From an uncultured beta proteobacterium (GTDB lineage: Bacteria; Pseudomonadota; Gammaproteobacteria; Burkholderiales; JACQAP01): a DNA stretch of 64,000 nt. Position numbers and translations under genes: made by a program. Positions 1-59,023 of this stretch are shown piece by piece. The stretch's first letter is position 1. Every line of letters begins with the position of its first letter. The notes beneath the pieces are model-generated. The model worked only from the letters and a program-made list of their open reading frames with translations, made no database searches and was not told where the DNA came from. The stretch lies in NCBI GenBank assembly GCA_963846655.1, contig CAWJWT010000002.1, positions 875,247 through 939,246 of the forward strand, written 5' to 3'.

Positions 1-441
1 CTCGTCAAGGTGCTCGCCCCCGCGTTCTACGCCAGGCAAAACATCCGCACGCCCGTGAAGATCGCGCTGATTACGCTCGCGGCGACGCAATTGATGAACC
101 TGGCTTTTATCTGGCCGTTGCGCCATGCGGGACTGGCGTTGGCGATTTCACTCGGTGCCTGCCTGAATGCCGGACTGCTTTATTATCAGCTGCGACGCCA
201 CGATATTTTTCGACCTCTGGCTGGCTGGGGAATCTTTGTTGCGAAAATCGCCGCTGCATTGCTGGCGATGGGCGCAGGGTTGTGGTGGGCGATGGGCCCT
301 GACGCTCAATGGCTGAGCGCGGGGGTGTGGTGGCGCATTGCGCGGCTGTCGATGCTCGTGGTGCTGGGTGCTGCCACCTATTTCGCCAGTCTGTGGCTGC
401 TGGGGTTGCGGCCGCGGGATTTTGTTAAGCGCTCGGCCTGA
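1..441 (+). CDS. murJ: Lipid II flippase MurJ (MviN), C-terminal part; 5' end lies outside the window
   Basis: Frame 1 is open from base 1. Hydrophobic polytopic sequence with MurJ-like VLAPAFYARQNIRTPVKIA. Stop at 439-441. Confidence 0.85.
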   Translation, partial: LVKVLAPAFYARQNIRTPVKIALITLAATQLMNLAFIWPLRHAGLALAISLGACLNAGLLYYQLRRHDIFRPLAGWGIFVAKIAAALLAMGAGLWWAMGPDAQWLSAGVWWRIARLSMLVVLGAATYFASLWLLGLRPRDFVKRSA

Positions 442-3947: not shown

Positions 3948-5662
3948 ATGTACGTATACGATCAAGTCGACCGCAATCTGGTCAACGAGCGCGTGGCGCA
4001 GTACCGGGACCAGGTCGAAAGATTTCTCGCCGGGAGCTGAGCGAGGACGAATTCCGGCCCCTGCGCCTGCAGAACGGGCTGTATATGCAGCGCCATGCAC
4101 ATATGTTGCGCGTGGCGATCCCGTATGGGTTGCTCTCGGCCAGGCAGTTGCGCATGCTGGCGCAGATCGCCAAACGCTACGACCGGGGCTACGGGCATTT
4201 CACGACGCGGCAGAATATCCAGTACAACTGGCCCCGCCTCGAAGACACGCCCGCAATTCTTGCCGATCTCGCGTCGGTGGAAATGCATGCGATCCAGACC
4301 AGCGGCAATTGCGTGCGCAATATTACGTCCGACGAGTTTGCCGGCGTTGCGCCCGACGAAATCCTGGATCCGCGCCCGTTCGCCGAGATCCTGCGGCAGT
4401 GGTCCACCTTTCATCCCGAGTTCGCCTTTCTTCCGCGCAAGTTCAAGATTGCCGTAAACGGTGCTGTGGAAGACCGGGCTGCAACGGCGTTTCACGATAT
4501 CGGGTTGTATTTGCGCCGCGGGCCCGAGGGCGACGTCGGCCTGCGTGTCCTGGTCGGCGGCGGCATGGGACGCACGCCGATCGTCGGGCCCGTGATCCGC
4601 GAGTTCCTGCCGTGGCGGCACATGAATACCTATGTCGAAGCCATCCTGCGCGTCTATAACCGGTACGGTCGGCGCGATAATCTGTACAAGGCGCGCATCA
4701 AGATCCTGGTCAAGGCGCTAGGTACCGAGGAATTCGCGCGCCAGGTCGAACAGGAATGGTCGCTGATCAAGGACGGGCCGGACACCCTGACGGATCAGGA
4801 ACTGGCGCGGGTATCGGCGTATTTTGCGGCTCCCGATTACGCAGCTTTCCCGTCGAGCGACGTGAAGTTCAATAGGGATGTCATGGAAAGTGCCGGATTT
4901 GCCCGCTGGGCCGGTCGCGCCGTCAAGGGCCACCGCGTTCCGGGCTATCGATCCGTCGTGCTGTCCCTCAAGAAAACCGGCATCCCCCCGGGCGATGCGA
5001 CCACGGAACAAATGGAGCTGGTCGCCGATTGGTCCGAGCGTTTCGGCTTCGGCGAAGTGCGTGTGTCGCACGAGCAGAATCTGATTCTGCCCGACGTGCG
5101 CGCTGATGACTTGTTCACGCTCTGGCAGGAAGCGCGCAAGGCCGGCCTGGCGACACCCAATCTGGGCTTGCTCACGGATATCATTGCCTGCCCCGGCGGC
5201 GATTTCTGTTCGCTCGCGAACGCCAAGTCCATTCCTGTTGCCGAGGCCATCCAGCGGCGCTTCGATGATCTGGATTTCGTGCACGACATCGGTGAACTCA
5301 ATATCAACATATCGGGTTGCATGAATTCCTGCGGCCATCACCATGCCGGTCACATCGGCATCCTCGGCGTCGATAAGGATGGCGAGGAGTGGTACCAGGT
5401 TTCGGTCGGGGGTGCCGACGGATCCCAGGCCGGGCGCGGGCGCAGCGCCATCGGCAAAGTCATCGGACCGTCGTTCAAGGCGGACGACATGCCCGACGTG
5501 ATCTCACGCTTGGTCGACATTTACCTCGAGCAGCGCCAGGAAGACGAGCGCTTCATCGATACGGTCGGCCGTCTCGGCATCGCTCCATTCAAGACAGGCG
5601 TATACGGTTCGCCATTGCGGGCTAGCCGGCGCGCTGCCGAAGGAGTCGTCGCCGATGTCTGA
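3948..5662 (+). pseudogene. cysI: Assimilatory sulfite reductase hemoprotein (siroheme/[4Fe-4S]) CysI; one apparent frameshift at 4032-4034
   Basis: ORF 4085-5662 has the Cys cluster CPGGDFCSLA...SGCMNSCGHH. The missing N-terminus MYVYDQVDRNLVNERVAQYRDQVERFLAG is in another frame (ATG 3948) and ends at TGA 4038-4040. Adding one G to the G3 run at 4032-4034 gives a continuous ...FLAGELSEDEFRPLRLQNGLYMQRHAHMLRV. Confidence 0.85.
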
Positions 5663-6180
5663 GATCATTCTGCGTGATGCGGTCGTGGTGGACGACTGGC
5701 AAATCCTGCGGCCGGGCGCGGACGAATCGCTGTCGTTCCAGCGGGACGCTTCATCGTGCCTCTGCGCGTGTGGCTGGACCGAAGCGCGAGGACTTGAACG
5801 CGCGGCGAAATATCGGCGTCTGGCTGAGCGGTGACGATGATCCGGCGGCGCTCGCGCCGTGGCTGGCGTCGCTTTCGATGGTGGCGGTCGATTTTCCAAA
5901 GTTCACCGACGGACGCGGCTATTCGATTGCCTATCTGTTGCGTTCGCGATTCGGCTACACGGGTCAGCTCCGCGCCATCGGCGACGTGCTTCCGGATCAG
6001 CTTTTTTACATGAAACGCGTGGGCTTCGACGCCTTTGCAGTGCGCTCGGACAAAGACATCCGCAAGGCCTTGCGCAGTCTGCAGCCGTTTACAGACGCTT
6101 ATCAAGGTTCCTGGGACAATGCGGTGCCCGCCTACCGGCGCCACCAGCGTGCCTGGCCGGCGGCGCCCGGCAAATCATGA
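5655..6180 (+). pseudogene. DUF934-family protein usually found next to cysI; two apparent frameshifts (~5715-5735 and ~5775-5790)
   Basis: ATG 5655 gives MSEIILRDAVVVDDWQILRPGADESL. A second frame gives VPAGRFIVPLRVWLDR. A third frame (ORF 5674-6180) gives REDLNARRNIGVWLSGDDDPAALAPWL...FPKFTDGRGYSIAYLLRSRFGYTGQLRAIGDVLPDQLFYMKRVGFDAF. Overlaps the cysI stop by 8 nt. Confidence 0.75.
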
Positions 6181-15677: not shown

Positions 15678-15723
15678 TCGGCACGGCGTATAATTCCGGC
15701 CTGCCTTTTTGATTGCCGTGTCC

Positions 15724-16659
15724 ATGGAAGTCCTGCTTGCCAATCCCCGCGGTTTTTGCGCCGGCGTAGACCGCGCCATCGAGATCGTCGAACGTGCCTT
15801 GAAACTGCATGGGGCGCCGATCTATGTGCGCCACGAGGTGGTCCACAACAAGTACGTGGTGGAGGATTTGCGCGCCAAGGGTGCGGTGTTCGTGGAAGCG
15901 CTGAGCGAGATTCCGCAAGGCGCGACCGTCGTGTTCAGCGCCCATGGCGTATCGCAAGCGGTGCGTCGCGATGCCGAAGCGCGCGGCTTGAATGTCTTCG
16001 ATGCCACGTGTCCGTTGGTGACCAAGGTCCATGTCGAAGTCGGCAAGATGCACCAGGGTCGGCGGGAGATCGTGATGATCGGCCATGCGGGCCATCCGGA
16101 AGTGGAAGGCACCATGGGCCAGGTCGACGCTCAGGGTGGACGCGGCATGTATCTGGTGGAATCCGTCGAGGACGTCGCACGCCTTGAGGTGAGCAATCCG
16201 GACAATCTTGCGTTCGTGACCCAGACGACTTTATCGGTGGACGACGCGCGCGCGATCACCGAGGCGCTGCGGCGGCGTTATCCGTCCATCATCGGCCCCA
16301 AAAAAGACGATATCTGCTACGCGACGCAGAACCGCCAGGATGCAGTCAAGGCGCTGGCGAAACACAGTGATGTGTTGATCGTCGTCGGCTCGCCGAACAG
16401 TTCGAATTCCAACCGCTTGCGAGAAGTCGCCGCCAATCTCGGCGTGCCCGCCTACATGCTTGACGATGCCGCCGATCTGAAGCCCGAGTGGGTGAAAGGC
16501 AAGCAGGTTGTGGGCGTCACGGCGGGCGCCTCCGCGCCGGAAGTGCTCGTCCAGGCGGTCATATCGAGGCTCAGGACCTTGGGCGCGCAAACGGTCCGGG
16601 AGCTCGACGGGATTGCGGAGCGGGTCACGTTCCCCCTGCCCAAGGCACTGAGCCGCTGA
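15724..16659 (+). CDS. ispH: 4-hydroxy-3-methylbut-2-enyl diphosphate reductase
   Basis: [26 protein letters not shown]..., conserved Cys/His ligand regions, 311 aa. The ORF-track TTG at 15709 is less likely than the ATG at 15724. Confidence 0.9.
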
Positions 16660-16680
16660 CGCTGCGGCCCGGCCAGAAAG

Positions 16681-16713
16681 AAAAGCGGCTCGCATTGCGA
16701 GCCGCTTTTTGTT
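16681..16713. terminator. Bidirectional rho-independent terminator between convergent ispH and pilY1
   Basis: Perfect 9-bp stem gcggctcgc (16685-16693) pairs with gcgagccgc (16697-16705) around a 3-nt loop. Flanked by aaaa upstream and tttttgttt downstream. Confidence 0.8.
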
Positions 16714-16726
16714 TGCCTTGACCTGG

Positions 16727-19700
16727 CTACTGCGACAACTCTCGCCAGGAACTGCGGCGGCCGGTCGGGCTCGGTGAGGAGAACGGCGGCGCCAGGTTGG
16801 GATATTTGTTATCCGATGTGGTCACGATCGCAACCGTCTTGTTGTTCGGCAGGCGCACCACGCTGATACCGACCACCAGCGAGTTGCCGATCAGCACGCC
16901 GGCAAGCGTGCTGCCCGAGGATACGACGTAGCCCCCCGTCTTGTAATCCAGGAAGTTCAGATACGAGGTGCCGCCCGACGTGCAGGCGCTCGACGCCGGA
17001 ATATTCGAACCGATGATCAGCGTGCCCAGTTGCAATTTCGGATCCACGTTGACCCGTTCACCCAGGTCCGGAAGATCCACCCGCCACCCGTTCTTCGAGG
17101 CATCGACCGTATTCGATGTCGCCGTGCGCGTTCCTGCACCGACGCCGGTCGTCGTGTTCGTCAACGTCTGGGCGACAATCGTGCCGCCGCGCACATTGAT
17201 CGGTGAGGCGGGCGCAGTGCCGTTGGTCGCATCCTTGATGCCGTAGATCGTCTGAGTCTGCGTGGAGGGCAGGTCGCTGGTGCCCAGATAACGCCCGGTG
17301 CCCACATAGATGAACGGCACCCCGTTGACTTCGCCCAGTTCCGGCTTGGTCGTCACCGGCTGTCCAACGCCGGACGGATCGGTATAGCGCGCGACTGCGT
17401 ACGCAGTGGCTGTATCCAGATTGAAGCGCCACAGATAACCCTGCAAGTCCGCGCCGTACACTCTGAGCGTGGTGTTGTCCACACTGGTGTCATCCACCCA
17501 GTTATTGAGGCGGGAGAGGCCCAGCGGCGTGGTGGTGCTGCCCGGGTTGAGGAACTGCGAGGCATTGGCGGCCTGGATCTTTTTCAGGATCACGCCGGTG
17601 ACCGGGATTCAGCACATACACGTAGCCTTTGCCGTCTCCGGGACTGACGTTGTTATAGCCGGAGGTGACGACCACGACCCAGGTGCCATTGCCAAGCTTG
17701 GTGATGATCGGGTTGCCGTAGGAGAGCCCCAGGTCGCAGTCGTCGGTGCTGACGCCGAGTGTCACGGACGACGGGCAGCTTGCCGTGGGCCTGACATTGA
17801 ATTCCCACAAGCCGACGGGCGTCGCCGGATCGGTGACATCGAGCGCGTAAAACCCGCGTCCGCCCGCACTCAGACCGCCCACCAGAATCGTCTTCCATTT
17901 AGCGGCGACCGGATCGTAGATGTCGCCGACGGTTGGCGAGCCATCGACATAGTACTGGTGACGGTTGCCGTAGTCCTTGTCGGCAAGGCGATACAGGTTC
18001 GGGATCAGGATATTGGGGATGAACGCCCAGCGCTCGTCACCAGTGTCGCCGTTGAAGGCATGCAGCATGCCGTCGTTGGCGGCGATGTACACGCTGGAAC
18101 TGCGCGGACCGCTGAATATCCCGGTACAACCTGCACCGCCAGTGTTGACGCACTCCTTGAAGTTCGCGCCGGCCGGTGCACGCGAATCCGGCGTCGGTGT
18201 AGGCAGCCGAAATCTGCTTCACGTAGACCGGTGCGCCATTGACCACGTCGCCCAGCACATGCTGCCGGTCGCGATACAACTGATTCGCCGTGGCAACCGA
18301 GGCCTGGCTTTCGAAAGAGCCATCGCCCCGGATGAAGTTGACGAGGTTCAGGCCCGCAGCGGCTGCCTGTTGGGCGGCATTCAAGCTTCCCCACTGGGTC
18401 AGCGGATTTGCACCGGTTCCGATCCAGCCGGCATCGAAGTAGGCCTGCTCGGCGCCGCTGAGGTTCGCGTAAGTGAAGTCCTGCAGTTTATTGGTGCTGC
18501 CGGAATTGAACCGCTTGATGGCGCGGCTGCTGCCGCCCGGCGTGGTCGAATTGTTCAGGGTATCGAGCTGGGTCTTGTGCGCTCCAGAGCGCCGTCGGGC
18601 TCACCGCACCGGTGTTCAGGTCGATGGTGCGCGCTTCGACGTCCCCGTTCCAGCGCACGGTCTCGTAACTCGCGACATAGGCGAAGTTGTCGCCGGCCAC
18701 GGGCTCGAGGTTACTGGTTGCCGCAGCGGCCGCCGAACCCGAGACTGCCGTGACGCCCACCAGTGCGTTCGACAGGCCGGTCACCAACTGCGCCGGATCG
18801 CGGGCGCTGAAATAGGTGCCCCGGCCGTTGACCGCGGCGTGCCACAGATCGTCCACGGCGGTGACGGTGTCTGCAACCGGTTGCGGCCAGTTCTTGGCGC
18901 CGTTCTTGATGGCCAGAAAATCCCCGGTCGGATTGGTGCGATAGTCCGACGCATAATTCAGCGCGCCGTCCACGCCCAGGCCCAAAGTCAGGGTCGTCAT
19001 ATGCTGCCAGCTCGCGCTGTCGTTCTGCGGGTCGGTGCCCGGCTGCCCCGGTACGTTATTGGTCGTGCCGACATCGAGCTGGGTAGCGGGGCTGCCGACG
19101 GCAGCGCCCAGCGAGCCCGGCGCGCGCAAGTCGGTGATGTAGTAATACTGCGCGACGTCTGCCAGCGTGTCTGCATAACCCAGCGGGCCGGATGTCGAGG
19201 ACACCGTGTTGGTATTCGCGGCCCCTGCGGTCGTGGACGAAGTCACCGGTCCGATGGTGAAGTCGGCGGAAGTGATGGTTGCGCCGATGGAGTTGCTCGA
19301 CGGTGCGCCGTTCGTGCTCGGTCGACGCACCGGCGGACGGGCCGCCTGTCGTAGTTGTTGGAGATCACGCTGCTGCTGCTGCTTGTCGCCGCGGCGCCGG
19401 GGTGCCCGGTGACTACGGGTGCCGAAGTGCCGCCTACGACCGTGCTGGTCGCAGCTGCGGTTTTTCCCGAGGTATCGCAAGAATTCACAGTGCTGAACGT
19501 CGGGCCGCTGGTCGTCCCGCTGTAAGCTCGTCGTCGCGGCACCTCCGCCAACGGTCGTGCTGATTCTGTTGTAACCCATGATGCGCTGCAGTTTCACTGT
19601 GCGTGCGCCCGAACCCGAGCACGTATAGGTCGTCTGCGGATTGGGACTGCCCCCGAACGCGGCACTGAACGAACTGGCGACATTCGTGCCCTCGGTGCTG

Positions 19701-21839
19701 CTCACCCATTGCGCGGTCTCGGTGATCGGCGTGGTCGTCGTCGAGGTCAGATTGGTGCAGCCCCCGCCCAAAGCGCTCAGCGCATAGGTATTGCCGCCGA
19801 ATGTCGTGGTCGTAGGCCCGGCGCCAACCGTGGTGTCGGTCTGATCGTAGGTCGTGGTCCTGCGCCAGACGCGCGCCCGGTTGGCCCCGCATGTGCCGGT
19901 TGCTTGCGTGCCGCCTGGCACTCCGGAAACGTTCGGCCCGAACGTCGTGGCGGTTACGTTGCCAAAACTGCTTGCGGCGGTTGCCGTCAGGGTTTGTTCC
20001 TGAATGACCGTGAACTGCGTCACTCGCGTGTTGGTCTGGGCAACACAGGCGCCGTTGCTGAAGTTATAGGTGGTTCCGCTCGTGGTCGGCGCACCCGCAA
20101 CGCCGTCAGTCGTGACGACCGTCGTGTTGTAGGTCGTGGTACGCGTTTTGACGTTCGCAAAATTCGAAGCGCAACTGCCCGACTGGTTCGCACCCGCGGC
20201 GACGCCGTTGACCGCGCTGAACGTGGACATGGCATTGCCGCTCAGTTTCTGCTGGTCGGTCATGGTGGTCGGCGTGACGGTGGTCACGACCGTCGCGTTA
20301 CACGCCGTGATGTCCTGATAGGTCGTGGCGCTGCTGGGCGTCGTGCTCAGGACCACGCCGTCGCGCGAGACGACCGTACTGATCGAGGCGGACGTCTGCT
20401 GCTTGACGCGCTTGAAATTCGCCGAGCAACCGCAAGGCGAGGCACCGAAAGCGTTGGCGTTGCCGGTACAAATCTGCTGGTTCAGCGTATTGGTGGTGTT
20501 GACGGTTGTGAGCTGGAATGAACCGTCCAGCAACGGGCGCGGCGCGGTGGTCGGATCGGAGTCCTGATTGCCGATGGCGCTGCCATCAAGGCGCTGTCCG
20601 GCATTGCCGTTCCAGAAACCGTCTGTGGACAACAACGTGAAATTCTGCTGGCACGAATACTGGACCGGATCGTCCGTGATGCCGTTATTGATACCGGTCT
20701 TCACATTGCCATAGTAGCGGCCGACCCGGGACAAGGCTTCGCGCAGCGGCGTCCCACTGGCCGCATCCTGTGCGTAAAACTTGGTAAACCACTGGTCCTT
20801 TTGTCCGCCTGCGCCGGCCGTAAAATCCGCGATCGGCAGGAATTTCGATGTCAGAACGGGATTGCCAGGATTGATCGTAATGAAACCGACGCGGAAGTTA
20901 TCGGTCACCTGCTTGAACGTCAGCCCCGTCGCCGTCTTCATCGTTTGCATGCGGCTGCGATAGTAGGCATACCAGTTGGCGAAGTTCGTCATTTCCTGCG
21001 CGTAGCTGCAACCGGTGGCGCCGACAGCGCCGGTGCAGTCTGTGCGCGAAGCCGCGCGCGGATAGTTGGCGGTCGACGAAACGATATCCGTCCGCGTGAA
21101 GCCGTTGTCTGCCGCTGCCGAATTTCGGATACTGGAAAGTCGCGGTTTTCTTCGGCTGGCAGGTGCCGTTGCCGAAGCCCTTGGTGCCGTCTCTGGTGCT
21201 GCACCAGGCGAGCGCGCTGATGGTGTAGTAATACGGAGTCCGGCGTGCCGGTCACGGCGAACTTCCGGTTATATGTCCCGTTCGGATAAGTCCACACACC
21301 GCCCACGATGGGCAGTCTGCACACGCCGCTGGAGAACGGCGGGGTGCGGTCGGTCGCTGAAGGGGAGTTGGTGTTGCACCAGACCGTATCCGGATAAGCC
21401 GCCGTCAAGATCGATGTTGCCCGAGAACTGGACTCCGTAGGCGTCGTTCGGCACTGCCGTCCAGGTGGTATAGCTGGTCCGGCTGGTTCCGTCATAGTTA
21501 ACCGCGGGCGTATAGGTGATGGCCGGGTTGTAGTACATGCCGTTGAACAGCGCGGCGTTGTACGCCGGGTCGGCAAAACTGCAGGTTCGCAGCGTGGCGT
21601 CGTCGTCCTTGCAGGCGGGATCGTCGGAAACCGAGTCCGGCATGTAATCCCGATCCATACTGCCGGAGCCATCCAGCACGAACATCAGGTTGGGCTTCAC
21701 GACTGCGCTGGCCGTGTTGGCCATCGGTGCGGGTGCGATGTCGGTCAACGCCGCGTTGACTGTGGTCATGGCCAGTCCCAAGCCGAGGACAAGGGCCATC
21801 TCTGGTCATAGTCAGGCTCGTCGGTGCAGTGCGCTTCAT
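16727..21839 (-). pseudogene. pilY1: Type IV pilus tip adhesin / biogenesis factor PilY1 (~1700 codons), fragmented by at least 8 frameshifts as sequenced
   Basis: Pieces in three frames: 21269-21799 (signal peptide, vWA MIDAS KPNLMFVLDGSGSMD), part of 20989-21672, 18488-20992 (EMTNFANWYAYYRSRM...), part of 19243-19551, 18037-18384+, 17502-18092 ([26 protein letters not shown], beta-propeller) and 16727-17593 (VYGADLQGYLWRFNL). Conserved sequence continues across each junction only after a frame change. Confidence 0.85.
19310..20470 (-). repeat. Four ~90-aa Thr/Ser/Gly-rich two-cysteine modules inside pilY1 (coding repeat)
   Basis: Recurrent pattern C-x(5-8)-VK-x-(R/Q)-T-T-x-Y...TT..G......TTS.TTY.FS...C. 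First Cys of each module is at residues ~187/189, 274, 368 and 458 of the 834-aa ORF. Confidence 0.6.
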
Positions 21840-21872
21840 GATAGCTCCCGGATGCATAACGGATCAGGTCGA

Positions 21873-22451
21873 TCAGTAAATAAAAGCTTGCAGATAACTG
21901 TTGGTGAATTTGGGTCCTTCGATCTTTGCGGTGATGCGGTAAAACACCAGCGAGGTGCCGGACAGCGGTGAGCTGCCGTAGGAACTGCCGCCTTTGGTGC
22001 TGCCGACCGATACCGTGGCTACTTTCACGCAGTCGGTTGCGTCGATGGATTTGCCGGATTCGTTGCACATGCGATGGGCCACGTAGTAAATGGTGTTGCC
22101 GTAGCTGTCGGTGCCCACCAGTGTTGAACTGGCGAGCCAGTCGAAGGACTTCGCGTCGAAAGAAGGTTGCCAGTTCGCGAAATAGCCTCCCTGGTCGGCT
22201 TCCAGTTGTCCCGGTGTCTTGGTCGTCAGCCAGGCGCGCGCGGATTCGATCGCGGCGTCGCCCGCGCTTGCGGCGGCGTTCTTGAAGGCCAGGTTGCCCG
22301 CAATCAGATTATTTGTGTCGACCGAGCGCATCATGCCGAGTCCCGCCAAAGTCATGGCGACCAGGACGATCAGTGCGATAAACAGCACCACGCCGCGCTG
22401 CGCACCGCGTGCACTGCGGAGCCGGACGATTCTGCAAGAAGAGGAGGTCAT
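21873..22451 (-). CDS. pilX: Type IV pilus minor pilin PilX
   Basis: ATG 22451 overlaps the pilW stop by 1 nt. N-terminus MTSSSCRIVRLRSARGAQRGVVLFIALIVLVAMTLAGLGMMRS (PilX_N-type hydrophobic segment). Sits between pilW and pilY1. Confidence 0.75.
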   Translation of the reverse strand: MTSSSCRIVRLRSARGAQRGVVLFIALIVLVAMTLAGLGMMRSVDTNNLIAGNLAFKNAAASAGDAAIESARAWLTTKTPGQLEADQGGYFANWQPSFDAKSFDWLASSTLVGTDSYGNTIYYVAHRMCNESGKSIDATDCVKVATVSVGSTKGGSSYGSSPLSGTSLVFYRITAKIEGPKFTNSYLQAFIY

Positions 22452-23569
22452 CAGTTGCTCCAGATCATGTTGCGCAAAGGCACGACGGTTTCGTACACGC
22501 GATAGCGGTAGTTGCGCCAATCGGTACCATCGGCAGGATTCGACATGGTGAATGCGCCACCGAACCAGGTGGGCGCGGCAGCGGTCACCGCGGTTTTCTC
22601 GAATTGCGCACTGCGCGCCAGCACTGCGATACGCAGTGCGCGCACCTGCATCCATTCGGCCGAGGTGGTGGGGGCGGTCGTATTCCACGCATCGACGACG
22701 CTGTCGGCATTGGTGTCTTTGCCGTATTGGGCTTTGAGTTGCACGATGCCATCACCGATGTCGGCATCGGAAGTGCCGTCGCCATCGCCGTCTTGCGCGG
22801 CGACGTACGGGATCAAGGTCCGGGTCTGGAGCCTGTCGTTGCCGATTTGATAAGTGACGACGGTCGGTGCGCGTCCGAGCGTGAAGAGCATTGCGGCCGT
22901 CGAGTAATCGACTCCGGACCCACCGCCCTTGTTGTACGTCGCGGTGGGGCTGATCGTGTTGCCGGCATTGTCGACATAGCTGTAGGCAACCCCGCTGGCA
23001 TGTTCGACTGTGTTGATGGCGGCAGGTACGAAACCCGTGACTTCGGCCATCGAACAGTCCAGTCCCGACTCGCTTGCCACCACCAGGTCACCCAAGAGGA
23101 CGCCTGCCGCGTTCTTCAGCGGGAAGTCCGCGCCGGATAAGGCAGCACCGACAAATGCATTTCCCTCCACGACGTTGGGCGAATCGCCGTAGATCACGGT
23201 AATCGAGTCCGGCGCACCGGCCGCACCGACCGTGATCGACACCGGCGCCATCGGGAAAGTGAAGTCGGGAGCGGGCCGGTCGCTGTTGTACGCGCGCGTG
23301 GTGCAGCCGAGCATGTTGCTGCCCGGCGAAACCATGCCGAACCCGGCACTGCGAATCGAACTTTCCAGCGTGAACAAGGCAATGTTGCCGTTGATCTGCG
23401 CGTCACTGGTCCCGGTGGTGGTGCGCTTTCTTTCCTCGGAGGTCGCGTACACCTGCATGATGACGACCATGCCCACCAGGCCGATCAGTACCGCGGCCAG
23501 GATTTCCGGCAGGCTCATGCCGCGCATGAGCCGGGGGTTTTGGGGTATCCGCTTTGATGGCTGCCTCAT
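22451..23569 (-). CDS. pilW: Type IV pilus minor pilin PilW
   Basis: Prepilin-like N-terminus ...MRGMSLPEILAAVLIGLVGMVVIM (Glu at +5). ~372 aa. ATG lies 8 nt after the pilV stop. Confidence 0.8.
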   Translation of the reverse strand: MRQPSKRIPQNPRLMRGMSLPEILAAVLIGLVGMVVIMQVYATSEERKRTTTGTSDAQINGNIALFTLESSIRSAGFGMVSPGSNMLGCTTRAYNSDRPAPDFTFPMAPVSITVGAAGAPDSITVIYGDSPNVVEGNAFVGAALSGADFPLKNAAGVLLGDLVVASESGLDCSMAEVTGFVPAAINTVEHASGVAYSYVDNAGNTISPTATYNKGGGSGVDYSTAAMLFTLGRAPTVVTYQIGNDRLQTRTLIPYVAAQDGDGDGTSDADIGDGIVQLKAQYGKDTNADSVVDAWNTTAPTTSAEWMQVRALRIAVLARSAQFEKTAVTAAAPTWFGGAFTMSNPADGTDWRNYRYRVYETVVPLRNMIWSN

Positions 23570-23577
23570 GATTGGCC

Positions 23578-24024
23578 TCAATTGATGTATGCCGTCATGA
23601 CGTACTGGTGCACCGACGTATCGCTCGGATTGCGCCAGCGCAGGGTCACCGTGGTCTGGGTGCCCACCGCCGCGCCCAGGGGGCTGACACCGACCGTAAC
23701 GATCGGCGGGTTGGCGGCAGCATCCGGCAGGGAGGCATTGACCCGCGCGACCCAGTTGGTCAGTGCTGCGGGCGCGGTACCGCTGCCCGAATACTGATAA
23801 GTCGCCAGCGCGGTGCGGTTCACCCACATTTCGCCGACGAGCTGGCTCGCGAGGCTGCTCGCTTCGGCACGGTCGCGCGAGTCGGTGGCCAGCCGGATGC
23901 TCATGGCTTGCATGCCGACCATGGCCAGAATGCCGAGCGAGAAAATAAGAATACCGATGAGCGCTTCCAGCAGCATCACGCCCGACTGGGCGTTACGCGA
24001 AGAGCGTCTTGATTTGGATGTCAT
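23578..24024 (-). CDS. pilV: Type IV pilus minor pilin PilV
   Basis: MTSKSRRSSRNAQSGVMLLEALIGILIFSLGILAM (prepilin N-terminal motif). GGGGGG Shine-Dalgarno upstream. 148 aa. Confidence 0.8.
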   Translation of the reverse strand: MTSKSRRSSRNAQSGVMLLEALIGILIFSLGILAMVGMQAMSIRLATDSRDRAEASSLASQLVGEMWVNRTALATYQYSGSGTAPAALTNWVARVNASLPDAAANPPIVTVGVSPLGAAVGTQTTVTLRWRNPSDTSVHQYVMTAYIN

Positions 24025-24037
24025 TGCGTGCCCCCCT

Positions 24038-24573
24038 TTAGCATCTGCGCGAATCGCCGGCCGTGGCGACTTGCGGATCGCACATCTTGATCTGGCCGCC
24101 AACCGCCACTGTCAGAGTTCAAGCAGCGCATATTGGTGGTGCCGGTGCCGCAGGCGCCACCGGTCGGATTGGTGACCTGGATGGTTGCGGCCGCCGCAAG
24201 ATTGGTCTTTGCCCAGGCCGTCGAAGGTGATCGTTGGATTGGTGGTGGCAATGACCGCGTTCGGCGTACCTTCGGCCGCGGAACGCGTTTGCACCGTTCC
24301 ATTTTCCAGCGCGGACGGGCTGTCGATCGTGACCGTCCAGCTTGAATCGGGGCCGGCCATGCTGAAGGTCACGGCTTTGTTGCGCTGTACTGCGTTGGCG
24401 CGCGCCAGTTGCAGTCCGTTCAAGACGGATTCGGCGGCATTGCGCACTTGCACGTTCTGCAGCCAGGCGGTGAAACTCGGCACACCCAGGCCCAGCAGTA
24501 CGCCGATGATGACGAAGCCGATCAGCAGTTCGATCAGCGTCAGGCCAGCCGAAAAACGGGCGCGCATCAGCAT
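24038..24573 (-). pseudogene. fimT: GspH/FimT(FimU)-family minor pilin; two apparent frameshifts (~24205-24210 and ~24112-24125)
   Basis: [34 protein letters not shown]...NPTITFDGLG in frame a; KTNLAAAATIQVTNPTGGACGTGTTNMRCL in frame b; TLTVAVGGQIKMCDPQVATAGDSRRC-stop (typical family C-terminus) in frame c, ending at TAA 24040-24038. Confidence 0.75.
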
Positions 24574-24986
24574 GTGCCGTTCTTCCTGACGATCCAGCAG
24601 CTGGCATTGCCGATCCAGCCTTTGGTTGCAGCGCCCCCGGTGATGACCGTAGCTCGTGCATTGCTCTGGTCGATGGAAAAGGCGAATCCGGAAAGGTCGC
24701 TTTGGCCGGTGGCGGTGACCGTATAGGTAGTGGCGCTCAGGTTCGAGCAGGCATAAGTGAAGTATTTGGCGTTCGTCGTCGAGCACGGCATACCTGCATA
24801 CGACCGATTGTCCTGAAACCACTGTTCGGATTGCACGCGGATCGCGAGCAGATTCGAATAGGCTTCGGGCAACTTGCCGCGGAGGACGTACTGGTTATAG
24901 GAAGGCAGCGCAACGGCGGCCAGAACGCCGACAATCGCGACTGCGATCAACAGTTCGATCAACGTGAATCCGCCCGACTTCTTCAT
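24567..24986 (-). CDS. pilE: Type IV pilin-like protein PilE
   Basis: [33 protein letters not shown] (class III signal / N-methylation motif, Glu +5). C-terminal Cys pair. Strong AAGGAGG Shine-Dalgarno at 24991-24997. Confidence 0.85.
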
Positions 24987-25247
24987 GCAATCCTCCTTTT
25001 TTGGTGCATGAAGACTAGCGGTCGCGGAATCGGTATGCCATCGTCTTCCGACGAGAGGTCAGTTTGGCAGAACGAACGGCAGGCCAAACGCTAGCCAACA
25101 AACGCGGAACGCTTTATCGTTGGCAGACGTTTTTTGTCAGTCCCGGACGTTTTCGCGCCTGACTCGAAAGTCACCGAAAAGCCCTTGAACATACCGATGC
25201 AATTTGCTGGACTCTCGATTCTGCGCCCGCAGCGGCCGACTGCCGAC

Positions 25248-25943
25248 ATGCGACTTGCGATGGCGGTGGTGGCGTCCTTGCTGCTGCATGCAATCATGCT
25301 GATGACATTGTCTTCGGTTTCGTTGGCGGGCAACGGGTTTACCTGGCCGGTTCAGATGCCTTTAAGCGTCCTGATCGAGAAGCCGACGCCCGCGCGGAAA
25401 GCAACGCCACCCGTGCACGTTTCCAATCCAATGGTGGTCAACGCGAAGCGAGCGCCGCCCGCCCGGAGTGCCGAGGCTGCAAGCGCCTCGCCACCAAGCG
25501 CGGTGGATGTCCCGCAATACCCGGCGCAACCCGGGGTGAGCGTATCCGAGATGCTCTATCCGGGTTCCATTCCGGCGCGGGTCACCAGTCCACTGCTGCT
25601 TGATGAGACTTATCGACCCGCGACCGACATCAGCGAACCCCCGTCGGCGATAGCGATCAGGATTCCAACGTATCCGTTGCCGGCGCAGGAGCAAAAATCG
25701 TCCGGATGGGTGATCGTCATGCTATTCCTCGACGAACGCGGAAGGGTCGTCGATACGGTCGCACTCACGTCCAGCGAATCGTTCAGTGCGTACGAGGAAA
25801 GTGTCGCCGCGCAACTGCAAGGCTCTTTCTATGCGCCGGGAAAATTGGATGGGCAAGCGGTGAAAACACGCATGTTCGCGAAGGTGCGGTTCGATTTCGG
25901 GCGCTCTGACGTCCATTGCGGCCGGCGACGCGCTGCCGCATGA
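25248..25943 (+). CDS. TonB-family energy transducer-like protein
   Basis: N-terminal anchor MRLAMAVVASLLLHAIMLM, Pro/Ala-rich spacer, C-terminal TonB_C-like IPTYPLPAQEQKSSGWVIVMLFLDERGRVVDTVAL...APGKLDGQAVKTRMFAKVRFDF. The start was chosen at the ATG before the TM helix (the ORF track starts at 25134). Confidence 0.65.
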   Translation: MRLAMAVVASLLLHAIMLMTLSSVSLAGNGFTWPVQMPLSVLIEKPTPARKATPPVHVSNPMVVNAKRAPPARSAEAASASPPSAVDVPQYPAQPGVSVSEMLYPGSIPARVTSPLLLDETYRPATDISEPPSAIAIRIPTYPLPAQEQKSSGWVIVMLFLDERGRVVDTVALTSSESFSAYEESVAAQLQGSFYAPGKLDGQAVKTRMFAKVRFDFGRSDVHCGRRRAAA

Positions 25944-25992
25944 AGATTAGGCGCGTTCGACAGCGTCCGACACGTACCCTATAATCGATTTC

Positions 25993-55574: not shown

Positions 55575-56559
55575 TCTGTTCCGCGACGCTGTGATTGATC
55601 ATTCGCTGCACGCGCAATGCGTACTGGCCGTTGAACACGCCATGGTTGCATTCCATGACCGGTACGCCATCGACGGTGGCGATCAATTCCGCGGGGATCT
55701 GCAGCGGGATGACATCGCCCACTTGCAGGCCGTTTACCTGGCTCAAGGTGAGCTTCGCGCAGCCCAGATTGGCCACCAGTTCCACTTCCGCTGACTGGAC
55801 CTGGCGCGACAGCAGGCGTAACCAGCGCTTGTCGGCCTTGTTGCGCTCGCCCTGCGCCGTCGAGTTCAGGACGTCGCGAATCGGTTCGATCATTGCGTAG
55901 GGCAGGCACAGATGAAAGTCGCCGCTGGTGCCGCCCAGTTCGATGGTGAAGGTCGTGGTGATGACGATTTCGTTCGGTGTCGCAATGCTGGCGACCTGCG
56001 GGTCCGGCTCGGCGCGCACGCTCTCGAACTTCACCGGGTAAACCGGTTTCCACGATTGCTCGAGGTTCTCGAACGCCACCTCCATGAGCCGCTCGACGAT
56101 GCGCCGCTCCGTGGGCGTGAATTCGCGTGCTTCATCCCGCGCCGGGAAACGCCCGTCGCCGCCGAACAGCGTATCGATCACCAGGGCGACCAGGGCGGGG
56201 TCGAAAACGAACACGCCGTTGCCGCGCAGCGGCTTGAGTTCCACCATGTTCAGATGGACCGGCGCCGCCAGGCTGCGCAGGAATTCGCCGTATTTCTGCG
56301 CACGTACCGGACCGACGGAAATCTCCGCGCTGCGGCGCATGAAGTTGAACAGCCCGACGCGCATCAGCCGTGCAAAGCGCTCGTTGATGAGTTCAAACGT
56401 GGGCATGCGCCCGCGTACGATGCGCTCCTGGGTCGCGACGTTGTAGGGCTGAACCTGCGCCTCCCCGCCCGCTTTCGCCGGTGCGGCGGCGGGCGCTTCG
56501 CCGGACACGCCTTCGAGCAGCGCGTCGACTTCGTTCTGGGTCAGAAATTCTTTGGCCAT
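55564..56559 (-). CDS. fliM: Flagellar motor switch protein FliM
   Basis: MAKEFLTQNEVDALLEG (CheY-P binding-type N-terminus). 331 aa. Confidence 0.9.
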   Translation of the reverse strand: MAKEFLTQNEVDALLEGVSGEAPAAAPAKAGGEAQVQPYNVATQERIVRGRMPTFELINERFARLMRVGLFNFMRRSAEISVGPVRAQKYGEFLRSLAAPVHLNMVELKPLRGNGVFVFDPALVALVIDTLFGGDGRFPARDEAREFTPTERRIVERLMEVAFENLEQSWKPVYPVKFESVRAEPDPQVASIATPNEIVITTTFTIELGGTSGDFHLCLPYAMIEPIRDVLNSTAQGERNKADKRWLRLLSRQVQSAEVELVANLGCAKLTLSQVNGLQVGDVIPLQIPAELIATVDGVPVMECNHGVFNGQYALRVQRMINHSVAEQNDH

Positions 56560-57254
56560 GCTCGCGGAGCGGATCTACTGGATGATGAAGGAAGTGAACA
56601 GCACGCTCTTGACCAGATAGTCCTCGGGCGACTGCGCTTCGCTCTCTTCTTCGTCGCCGGCTTCGGCTTCGGTGGCCTCGTCCTCGGCCGCTTCGCCTCG
56701 GCCGCTTCGCCCTCCGCCGCCACCCTGGTGATCTTGAGCGGGGCCGGGGCCGGGATGGACTCGGGGTCGACGACCGCCGTGATTTCCAGGCGCACGGCTT
56801 CGGCGAGTTTCAATTTACCGTCGGTCGTGAGCACTTCCTGCGAGGTCTTGTTCGCGAGCAGCATCAGGATGCGATTGCGCACTTCAGGCATGTGCGCCTT
56901 GACCGCGTCCACGACGCCGGGCCCGGCGAGCCGCAGCGTCATCTCGGTCTGCAGAAACTGATCGTTGCCCTGCGCCTGCGGATTGCGCAAGTTTACGACG
57001 AACGCTTCCAGCGGCAGATAGACCGGAGGTCCGGCCCGATTGACCTGCTTGACGGGATTTTTTTTGACCGGTTCGGCCTTGGCTTCACCCGGCGCGGCCG
57101 GGAACAACCGGAGGGCGAACCAGGTGCCGCCGCTGCCCAGCACGCAGCACAGCGCCGCGATGAGGATCATCGTTTTCTTGCCAGCCGGTTTCTTGGCCGG
57201 GACGTCGGGGATTTCCTCTTGCGTTTCGGCGTCGGCTTTCGGATTCTTTGCCAT
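56541..57254 (-). pseudogene. fliL: Flagellar basal-body-associated protein FliL, C-terminus frameshifted by a 14-bp tandem duplication (native stop would be at 56577-56579)
   Basis: N-terminal 190 aa are FliL-like (TM ILIAALCCVLGSGGTWFAL; YLPLEAFVVNL...FLQTEMTLRL). After 56708 the frame gives an Arg/Lys/Pro-rich tail, whereas another frame encodes ...DYLVKSVLFTSFIIQ-stop, the usual FliL ending. Confidence 0.85.
56681..56708. repeat. Exact 14-bp tandem duplication (cctcggccgcttcg x2) inside fliL
   Basis: 56681-56694 and 56695-56708 are identical. Removing one copy restores a continuous FliL frame ending in LFTSFIIQ. Confidence 0.95.
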
Positions 57255-57363
57255 GGCGTGCCCTGTTCTTGGATGCTGCCATTATTCCGCCGGGCAGCCG
57301 GCATCCATTGGGCGAATAGAGCGGCAAAAAATGCCTAATTCAACGGGCCGGCCCTTACAGGCC

Positions 57364-58528
57364 TCAGGCGAACGTGTCCACCAGGGCGTTGCCGCGTCTA
57401 GTGGGTGGCGTGGATGTGGTTTCCAGCGCGTCCTCGCGCCCGGATTGCGCCGTGGTGCGAGGGGTGCCGCTGAATTGCCGGCCCGGGTCGGCGAACGCGT
57501 TGCCGTTTCCGGCCGTTCCCGCGTCCACGCTGGCCTGACCCAGTGCAATGCCGCTGGCCTGGAGCATTTCGCGCAATTTCGGCAACGCCGCTTCGATGGC
57601 CTCGCGCGTGCTCGCGTTGAGGGCACTGAATTGCACGGCGGCCGATGAACGGGAGCCTTCGGGGTCGCTGGTGAGCGTCAGTTTGATTTCGATGGGGCCG
57701 AGGTCCTCCGGATTCAGGCGAATGGCCGCGGACTGCACATCGTTTTTTGCCATCCAGACCACGCGCGCCGATAACCCGTCGTCCCACGCGGGCGTGCCGA
57801 ACGGCTGCGCCAGATAGTCCAGGTGCGCGGCCCCTGCAGCCGGCGCGTGGGAGGCTCCCGGATGCGTGGCTGACAGCAGCGGTCCATGCGCATTGACGGA
57901 AGGCGAGGGCGGTGCCGGCCGGACGGGATCGCGCGCAACGGACATATCCGGTTTGACGGCCGCGGCCAATCCGGCGTCCGCGAGCGGCGACCTTGCGGCG
58001 GTGCCGGGCTCGGGCAACTCCCCGCGCTGCGGGCCCCGCCCGTTGACGTCCATCGACTGCGGTAGCGCTGCGTTGTCCGCGGGCACGTCGGCGTCGATCG
58101 CGGGATTCGCAGCGCCGGATGCAGCGCCGAGCCCCGCGTCGTTGCGCCCGCGTGCGGGCAGCGCCGCGGATGGATCCGCTATTGCGACATTCAGTCGCCG
58201 GGGGCGGCGCAGGATTTGCGGGCGTGCCTTGCGCGGGCGCGGCGTGTGCGGCCTGTGCAGTGGCCTGGCCGGCCGCGATCGCTTGCAACAGCGCGGCGGG
58301 ATCCCACGCTGCCGCGGGCCCGGATGCTTCCGTTGCCGGCATTGCGTCTAAGCCGGTCGCGGGAGCCTCCGGTGCAAGCCGCCCGATGCCGCTGTCGAGC
58401 AATTCGGCGAAATCCGCGTCGCCCTGACCGGCCGCCGCAGGCTCCTCGGGCGGCGCGCCCGCCGCCGCTGAAATGGCGTTGGCCGCCGTGGCGGGCTGCG
58501 AACTGTTCAACAAGGGCAATGTGCTCAT
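57364..58528 (-). pseudogene. fliK: Flagellar hook-length control protein FliK; one apparent frameshift at the G5 run 58200-58204
   Basis: N-terminal frame (from ATG 58528): MSTLPLLNSSQPATAANAISAAAG...GTPANPAPPPA. The C-terminal frame continues ...LNVAIADPSAALPA... through the conserved FliK C-domain (AWDDGLSARVVWMAKNDVQSAAIRLNPEDLGPIEIKLTL). Confidence 0.8.
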
Positions 58529-58549
58529 TGGTCAGGCGTCCGGGACGTG

Positions 58550-59023
58550 TCAGGAAGATTTCTGCAGGCGATGCGGGTGGCTCGACGCGCTGTGTTCGTC
58601 CTGGTCTTTTTGCTCATTGCGTGCTTCGCGCCGCGATTCGCCGAGATTGTGGCGCTCCAGCAGCACCTCGAAGGATTTCAGCTTCGCGCGCGCGGCCTGC
58701 CATGCCTCCAGGCCGGTGCGGCTTTGCTGCGCGCATTGCGCCAGGACCTGCTGCTGCTGCGCGAGGGCATAGTCGAGCTTGCCCAGAAAGTCGTAGTAGT
58801 TGCGCCACTGCTCGCTGCCCAGGCCGGCCTGGCTGCTGCGTTCGAGGCGGGCCTGGTAATCGAGCCGGCAGCTCTCGAGCATCTGCAGGGTCGAGGATGC
58901 GGCCGTTTCTTTTGCGCGCAATTGCGCCAGCGCGGCAGCGGCGGCATCCACCTGCTTGCGCGTGAGATCCATGATCACTTCCAACGGAAAACGTCTGGAC
59001 ATTTCGGTCGCCTTTTTCTTCAT
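58550..59023 (-). CDS. fliJ: Flagellar export chaperone/stalk protein FliJ
   Basis: Coiled-coil 157 aa ([30 protein letters not shown]...). ATG 59023 forms an ATGA overlap with the fliI stop. Confidence 0.8.

Follow-up and report, generated by a model that had tools for sequence, protein, structure and literature searches.

PilY1/PilC proteins are adhesins of the type IV pilus tip, described as PilY1 in Pseudomonas aeruginosa and as PilC1 and PilC2 in Neisseria, and in minor-pilin operons of the fimT-pilV-pilW-pilX-pilY1 kind the pilY1 gene lies downstream of pilX. A gene of this family occurs on the minus strand, at positions 16727..21839, of the DNA analyzed here, a stretch of 64,000 nucleotides from an uncultured beta proteobacterium (assembly GCA_963846655.1, contig CAWJWT010000002.1, positions 875,247 to 939,246; hereafter the window). 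It shares with the tip adhesins a PF05567 propeller and a signal peptide, and with the operons its position downstream of pilX; a putative vWA-like region containing the motif DGSGS may be a further likeness. It differs from P. aeruginosa PilY1, which has 1,160 amino acids (aa), by a length of about 1,700 aa with a Thr/Ser/Gly-rich middle of approximately 600 aa, and by a reading frame which, as written, is broken ten times.

Judging from the sequence comparisons reported below, we estimate at roughly 80% the probability that pilY1 and the nearby fimT gene would be intact in nature, their surplus bases being consensus artefacts from collapsed reads of strains with different alleles of the minor-pilin/PilY1 island. 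Most likely, then, the PilY1 adhesin of this organism is normal, and the disruption of pilY1 should not be counted among real biological features.

The reading frame of pilY1

Four intact PilY1 proteins served as references (P0001 to P0004, 1687-1703 aa, all bearing PF05567 and named PilY1 by JGI), from Betaproteobacteria/Burkholderiales metagenome genomes. They were retrieved with a 1,687-aa query stitched from the three minus-strand frames of positions 16600-22000, which matched them at 76-77% identity with 100% query coverage. Each of them was run against the minus strand of 16700-21900 with a custom frameshift-aware protein-to-DNA dynamic programme. An earlier note on this DNA, made from the sequence alone, had called for such an alignment of intact homologs, and the homologs crossed every junction that it had proposed. 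All four runs gave a single colinear path from 21839 to 16733 (1306-1331 identities), free of stop codons and interrupted by ten frameshifts (~21800, 21409, 21243, 21110-21113, 19525, 19356, 19319, 18571-18574, 18180 and 17606). The reconstructed gene starts with ATG at 21839, stops at 16727-16729 and counts 1,699 codons after the ten extra bases are skipped. Thus, pilY1 does lie in frame-shifted pieces, as had been claimed, and all the junctions listed in the earlier note were recovered, including the one given as merely possible at ~21800 and the two events suspected within 19310-19355.

The ten junctions, all read on the minus strand and with the surplus base in brackets, are as follows. 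Junction 1 (21799..21803) falls in the signal peptide (ACC AGA[G]ATG, T R / M A L V). Junction 2 (21408..21410) reads GAT[C]TTG, with GAC in relatives, and junction 3 (21242..21244) reads ACG[C]CGG, with ACC in relatives. The surplus base of junction 4 (21109..21114) lies inside AGCGGCAGAC, where its placement is ambiguous. After junction 5 (19524..19527, ACGAGC[T]TAC) an open reading frame (ORF) of 834 aa stays open in the wrong frame; junction 6 (19355..19357, AAC[A]ACT) follows, and the frame of this ORF is resumed at junction 7 (19318..19321, ACC[G]AGC). The wrong-frame Arg/Gln-rich stretch that had been noticed inside the 834-aa ORF is therefore real, and it lies between 19525 and 19319. 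Junction 8 (18570..18575) reads CAA[G]ACCCAG where relatives have CAA or CAG followed by GCC or ACC, junction 9 (18179..18182) reads GCG[T]GCA where relatives have GCT, GCG or GCC followed by TCG or GCG, and junction 10 (17604..17609) reads AAT[C]CCGG where relatives have AAC CCG.

All ten shifts are of the +1 type, with a single surplus base each; one placement against P0002 can alternatively be read as two missing bases. Removal of one base at each junction regained exactly the residue count of the orthologs, and zero residues were lost. The product so restored consists of a signal peptide, a putative N-terminal vWA-like region with DGSGS, the Thr/Ser/Gly-rich middle and a C-terminal PilY1 beta-propeller. 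The earlier reading had followed PilY1 sequence from signal peptide and DGSGS to the propeller, and the restored protein bears this out: it matched PF05567 with E = 1.4e-41 over profile positions 1-402 of 411 (residues 1193-1560), a match spanning two junctions, when the raw 288-aa C-terminal ORF covers positions 320-402 only. The DGSGS motif, of the DxSxS type of the metal-ion-dependent adhesion site (MIDAS), is read at ~21650; the Pfam search of the restored protein returned no vWA match.

Two further insertions affect fimT, a gene for a minor pilin of the fimT/fimU type with a GspH domain (24041-24567, minus strand). Both are of +1 type, at ~24210 (AAA[G]ACC) and ~24116 (AAC[T]CTG); they were confirmed against two orthologs, and PF12019 and N_methyl were matched on the restored protein. 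Together, the 12 secure frameshifts of pilY1 and fimT are all one-base insertions, with zero deletions and zero longer indels.

In 25 of the 26 related genomes examined, pilY1 is one long ORF. In the remaining one, Noviherbaspirillum denitrificans TSA40 (L023, 9710-10783), the PilY1 C-terminus lies in a short ORF of 357 codons, owing either to a genuine disruption or to a fault of the draft assembly.

According to one explanation, pilY1 and fimT would be genuine and very recent pseudogenes, in a lineage without selection for this pilus adhesin; the earlier note had likewise considered a decaying pseudogene. The frameshifts are indeed present in the deposited sequence, adhesin genes are frequently inactivated, and N. 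denitrificans also has no full-length pilY1 ORF. Nevertheless, we regard this explanation as quite unlikely. Bacterial gene decay is reportedly deletion-biased, which 12 insertions and 0 deletions contradict (p <= 2.4e-4 even at 50:50). Decay in bacteria yields stops as well as indels; here the restored frame shows zero nonsense codons in 1,699, no longer indels, no residue loss and a divergence not above that of the neighbouring genes. Ten lesions in one gene also far exceed what inactivation needs, and pilX, pilW and pilV of the same operon are unharmed. Finally, the conserved genes cysI and fliL of the window are also "broken", and like damage in a sister contig is demonstrably artefactual (see below).

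The island in sister assemblies and the origin of the insertions

The Microflora Danica (MFD) genomes are built from deep Nanopore-only data on Danish soils and sediments, assembled with Flye and one Medaka round, and their authors name strain microdiversity as a limiting factor (PMC12313526). We infer that the window comes from these data or from a comparable set; it is probably a long-read metagenome consensus of the same making, Nanopore-only with Flye and one Medaka round. Its proteins, the 834-aa fragment included, are publicly deposited on one contig of 1,042,590 bp held by NCBI and ENA. The closest intact locus (L003, identical with L007) lies on ENA ERZ25039602 contig_110277, from a metagenome-assembled genome, uncultured beta proteobacterium isolate MFD10007.bin.2.188. 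Two sister contigs carry a damaged island, namely L004 (ERZ25039492 contig_55558, 235 kb) and L005 (ERZ25039600 contig_64300, 515 kb), and the locus L001 provides further orthologs. The window is syntenic with L001 and L003 in the gene order pilE-like, fimT (GspH), pilV, pilW, pilX, pilY1. When same-species fragments (>90% identity) over junctions 1-4 were sought with the N-terminal 338 aa of PilY1, no match exceeded 79% identity; the search also brought up numerous PilY1 fragments, truncated and located on very long contigs, L004 and L005 among them. The 54-aa protein P0123, grouped in one cluster with the 834-aa ORF, was rejected as unrelated.

The contigs L003 and L004 come from different samples of one project and have the same gene order. 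Their flanks differ by 0-1 mismatch per 500 nt. Over L003 3500-15000 (in L004 the same minus ~75) L004 shows 6-14% mismatches to L003, with 149 inserted and 49 deleted bases. This segment of ~11.5 kb contains two enoyl-CoA hydratase genes, fur, a TonB-like gene, the pilE-like gene, fimT, pilV, pilW, pilX and pilY1, and its boundary lies near the pilY1 stop, beside ispH. It looks like a strain-variable cassette exchanged by recombination. In L004 the enoyl-CoA hydratase genes, fur, the pilin genes and pilY1 are fragmented, and ispH, lspA, ileS and ribF are intact. The L004 pilY1 has 29 frameshifts, 20 of them of the +1 type; its true path is free of stops and encodes a protein 93% identical to that of L003. 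At L005 9222-13536, pilX is split in two and a shorter type of pilY1 in three, and the 5-6 frameshifts there do not all go the same way. All the island frameshifts of the window (12-13) lie inside the segment homologous to the island of the sister contigs.

In the island, the sequence of L004 is blended from more than one allele. Wherever L003 and L001 are discordant, L004 agrees with L003 in ~65% and with L001 in ~25% of cases, and the two are interleaved in every 500-nt bin. The isolated one-base insertions of L004 number 42; in 18 of them the base of L001 stands beside that of L003 (null 4.8%), and just 12 lengthen a homopolymer run (null 47%). For example, PilY1 codon 13 is AAT in L003, AAA in L001 and AAAT in L004, that is AAA + AAT; the same codon is hit by junction 1 of the window (AGA|G). 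Other cases are GTG in L003, GTC in L001 and GTCG in L004, and ACG, ACC and ACGC, respectively.

On this basis, we propose that co-existing strains with the same flanking genes carry different versions of the minor-pilin/PilY1 island, and that reads of these strains would have been collapsed by the assembler onto a single path. The insertions of the window would then come from the same process as those of L004, in which two alleles of a single-nucleotide polymorphism are written consecutively. The fact that the same island is damaged in two sister assemblies, with clean flanks, supports such a mixed-strain origin over generic error.

The window shows a suggestive form of this tandem-allele signature; it is only suggestive, since identity to the best references does not go beyond 77%. 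In 6/10 junctions the surplus base matches the one found in relatives at the adjacent codon position (null 0.26, p = 0.02). With P0003 as reference, the same peptide results at 7/7 evaluable junctions whichever of two different adjacent bases is removed (null 0.55, p = 0.015), as in GAT|C, ACG|C, CAA|G, GCG|T and AAT|C. The null of 0.55 was obtained from simulated random insertions passed through the same procedure, so that this two-way ("synonymous tandem") signature is weak alone. The fimT junctions AAA|G and AAC|T, and the junction CGC|A of a PPC-domain gene elsewhere in the window, also fit the pattern.

Several observations weigh against a collapsed-strain origin. The significance of the signature in the window is weak (p ~0.02), and with P0001 as reference the two-way-deletable junctions are 5/7 (p = 0.37). 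The strict best-scoring deletion does not single out the inserted base at five junctions, the references being only 77% identical. The island shifts of the window are 100% +1, compared with 20/29 in L004. Also, pilX, pilW, pilV and the pilE-like gene, which make up 2.6 kb within the island between the damaged pilY1 and fimT, are free of frameshifts, although the rate seen in pilY1 predicts ~5 for them; differences between the strains would need to be patchily distributed to leave them clean.

It could also be supposed that the frameshifts are biological, and that the cell bypasses or exploits them through programmed +1 ribosomal frameshifting, transcriptional slippage or phase variation like that of Neisseria pilC. 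All the shifts go in one direction, and junction 1 lies in the signal peptide, like the PilC frameshift region of Neisseria. However, comparison of the ten pilY1 sites disclosed no common motif, slippery sequence, stop or rare codon. Runs of four or more identical bases are absent from the pilY1 junctions, where the longest run is 3 nt, and no repeat tract accompanies the sites. Moreover, the closest orthologs are uninterrupted, and the sites are not conserved: the positions of the frameshifts differ among L004 (29), L005 (5-6) and the window, with overlap between them at two polymorphic codons only, which argues against programmed sites. We therefore hold this possibility to be extremely unlikely. 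We would rate as very unlikely the idea that the insertions are real in the natural population, where an island-specific mutational process would produce +1 variants of pilY1 and fimT and hence population-level on/off variation of the pilus tip.

The collapsed-strain origin also bears on the second explanation of the earlier note, namely that a repetitive GC-rich gene had been badly assembled. The bad assembly can be retained, as the errors track a strain-variable island. The repetitive and GC-rich character cannot: a repeat search of pilY1 found neither tandem repeats nor long direct ones, the few direct repeats present being short and due to chance, and the G+C of the gene (0.60-0.66) is the same as in the rest of the window.

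Neighbouring genes and background frameshifts

The operon neighbours had been described as mostly intact, and pilX, pilW, pilV, the pilE-like gene, ileS, flhA, flgK and fliF had been named as uninterrupted, which was correct; fimT, with its two insertions, and probably the TonB-like gene are not intact. On the minus strand, pilX (21873-22451), pilW (22451-23569), pilV (23578-24024) and the pilE-like minor pilin gene (24567-24986) are intact relative to their L001 orthologs, with 83, 80, 86 and 78% identity, respectively. The identity of pilY1 to its own L001 ortholog (~78%) is in the range of the intact pilW, pilE-like and pilX genes. The TonB_C-like gene (25197..25950, plus strand) has a probable one-base insertion at ~25899 (TTC[G]GGC), the similarity of its C-terminal tail being weak. 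On the other side, ispH (15709..16659, plus strand) is convergent with pilY1, intact, and marks the conserved edge of the variable island. A 154-aa ORF at 16231-16695 (minus strand) is a high-GC shadow ORF antisense to ispH and does not encode a pilin; the pilE-like gene of the operon is the one at 24567-24986.

Elsewhere in the window, most genes are uninterrupted. Coverage by hidden Markov models (HMM) indicated single full-length ORFs for cysH, cysD, cysN, cobA, flhDC, motAB, flhB, flhA, flhF, fliA, flgM, flgA-flgL, fliR, fliP, fliN, fliM, fliI, fliG and fliF, and ortholog alignment showed ileS, lspA, ispH, ribF, fur and the two enoyl-CoA hydratase genes to be intact. A per-strand Viterbi scan of codon usage was used for the nomination of candidates only; it was noisy, yielded antisense shadows and recovered 6/10 of the pilY1 shifts. 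ORF overlaps at cysH/cysD/cysN, at a methyltransferase/HDOD pair, and at flgD/flgE, fliI/fliJ and fliP/fliQ were rejected as frameshifts, being ordinary gene boundaries.

Three frameshifts were verified outside the island. A gene for a secreted PPC-domain protein (1647-549, minus strand) is split into ORFs of 292 aa and 114 aa by a surplus base at ~912 (CGC[A]CGG), as verified against uninterrupted homologs of 340-366 aa with up to 87% identity (P0175). In cysI (sulfite reductase hemoprotein, 3948-5662, plus strand), GGG stands at ~4033 where GGGG is required, and the first 29 codons are off-frame. The stitched N-terminus of 118 aa was colinear (1-118 to 1-118) with >100 proteins in a representative search; a tblastn search for cysI in the fetched loci did not find it. 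In fliL (~56541-57257, minus strand), one G is missing at ~56690-56700, in a direct repeat of ~14-15 nt (GAAGCGGCCGAGGC), and the conserved C-terminus ...VLFTSFIIQ is off-frame; when the base is restored, the Pfam FliL coverage of 1-84 becomes 1-103 of 103. The frameshifts of cysI and fliL are ordinary run-length errors.

Two other genes are possible cases. In fliK (57364-58556, minus strand), which is probably frameshifted, the N-terminal ~110 codons (MSTLPLLNSSQPATAAN...) are off-frame relative to the hook-length-control domain, by a +1-type shift close to a C5 run (~58219). The DUF934 gene downstream of cysI (~5700-6180, plus strand) may lack an A at ~5795 near its N-terminus (AAA read as AA), or it could be intact by use of a GTG start. 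The NCBIfam and Pfam models for CysI, FliK and DUF934 leave the N-termini uncovered, and the Pfam domain of DUF934 begins past the candidate site. The window thus has a low background of insertions as well as deletions, several of which fall in homopolymer runs, as is typical of long-read assemblies.

In comparison with this background, pilY1 has 10 frameshifts per 5.1 kb against 3 verified and 2 possible in ~55 kb outside the pilus island, an excess of 20- to 35-fold, and its frameshifts are different in kind. These figures bear on the possibility that the insertions are generic long-read consensus errors, that is random miscalls which survived polishing where coverage was locally low or poor, with no mixture of strains. 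The other long-read-type frameshifts of the window (GGG for GGGG in cysI, one G less in fliL, the fliK shift near a C5 run) speak in favour of it, as does the weakly significant tandem-allele signature within the window. The errors that persist in Nanopore sequence are for the most part deletions within homopolymer runs, such as those of cysI and fliL. Here, 12/12 are insertions, and at five of the pilY1 junctions the best-fitting deletion falls outside any run. Also, the same island is damaged with the same edges and clean flanks in two other assemblies, in one of which the tandem-allele origin was demonstrated. We thus consider generic error unlikely.

Meaning and comparison with known systems

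If the PilY1 of this organism is normal, the biological weight of the disruption is small. In long-read metagenome-assembled genomes, strain-variable surface loci may be full of one-base insertions beside clean housekeeping flanks. Annotation pipelines would then report such loci as pseudogenes or as a series of small ORFs; the 834-aa "protein", already in public protein collections, is one of these. Counts of pseudogenes, and reports of "lost" pili or adhesins, need caution in such genomes, and the tandem-allele signature offers a sequence-based way to spot these artefacts.

In Neisseria, the PilY1 homolog PilC undergoes phase variation: slipped-strand mispairing in a poly-G tract shifts the frame within the signal-peptide region. 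The window shares with it a signal-peptide-region frameshift in a gene of the PilY1 family. However, there is no homopolymeric tract here, and ten scattered sites, none of them conserved in orthologs, take the place of one switch.

Strains of P. aeruginosa carry divergent fimU-pilVWXY1E cassettes, which are horizontally exchanged alleles of the minor-pilin operon. The likeness lies in L003 and L004, with their near-identical flanks and their difference of 6-14% over ~11.5 kb down to the pilY1 stop. Unlike the P. aeruginosa cassettes, the present island adds the TonB-like gene, fur and two enoyl-CoA hydratase genes, and the divergence of L004 is partly that of a blended consensus and not of one true allele.

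Consensus errors of long-read assemblies with collapsed haplotypes were also compared. The pattern of the window is purer (+1 only) and sparser than that of L004, where alleles are seen side by side. L004 shares with such errors the confinement to a stretch that differs between strains, the clean flanks and the single-base indels at polymorphic sites, and the pilus island of the window would probably do so too.

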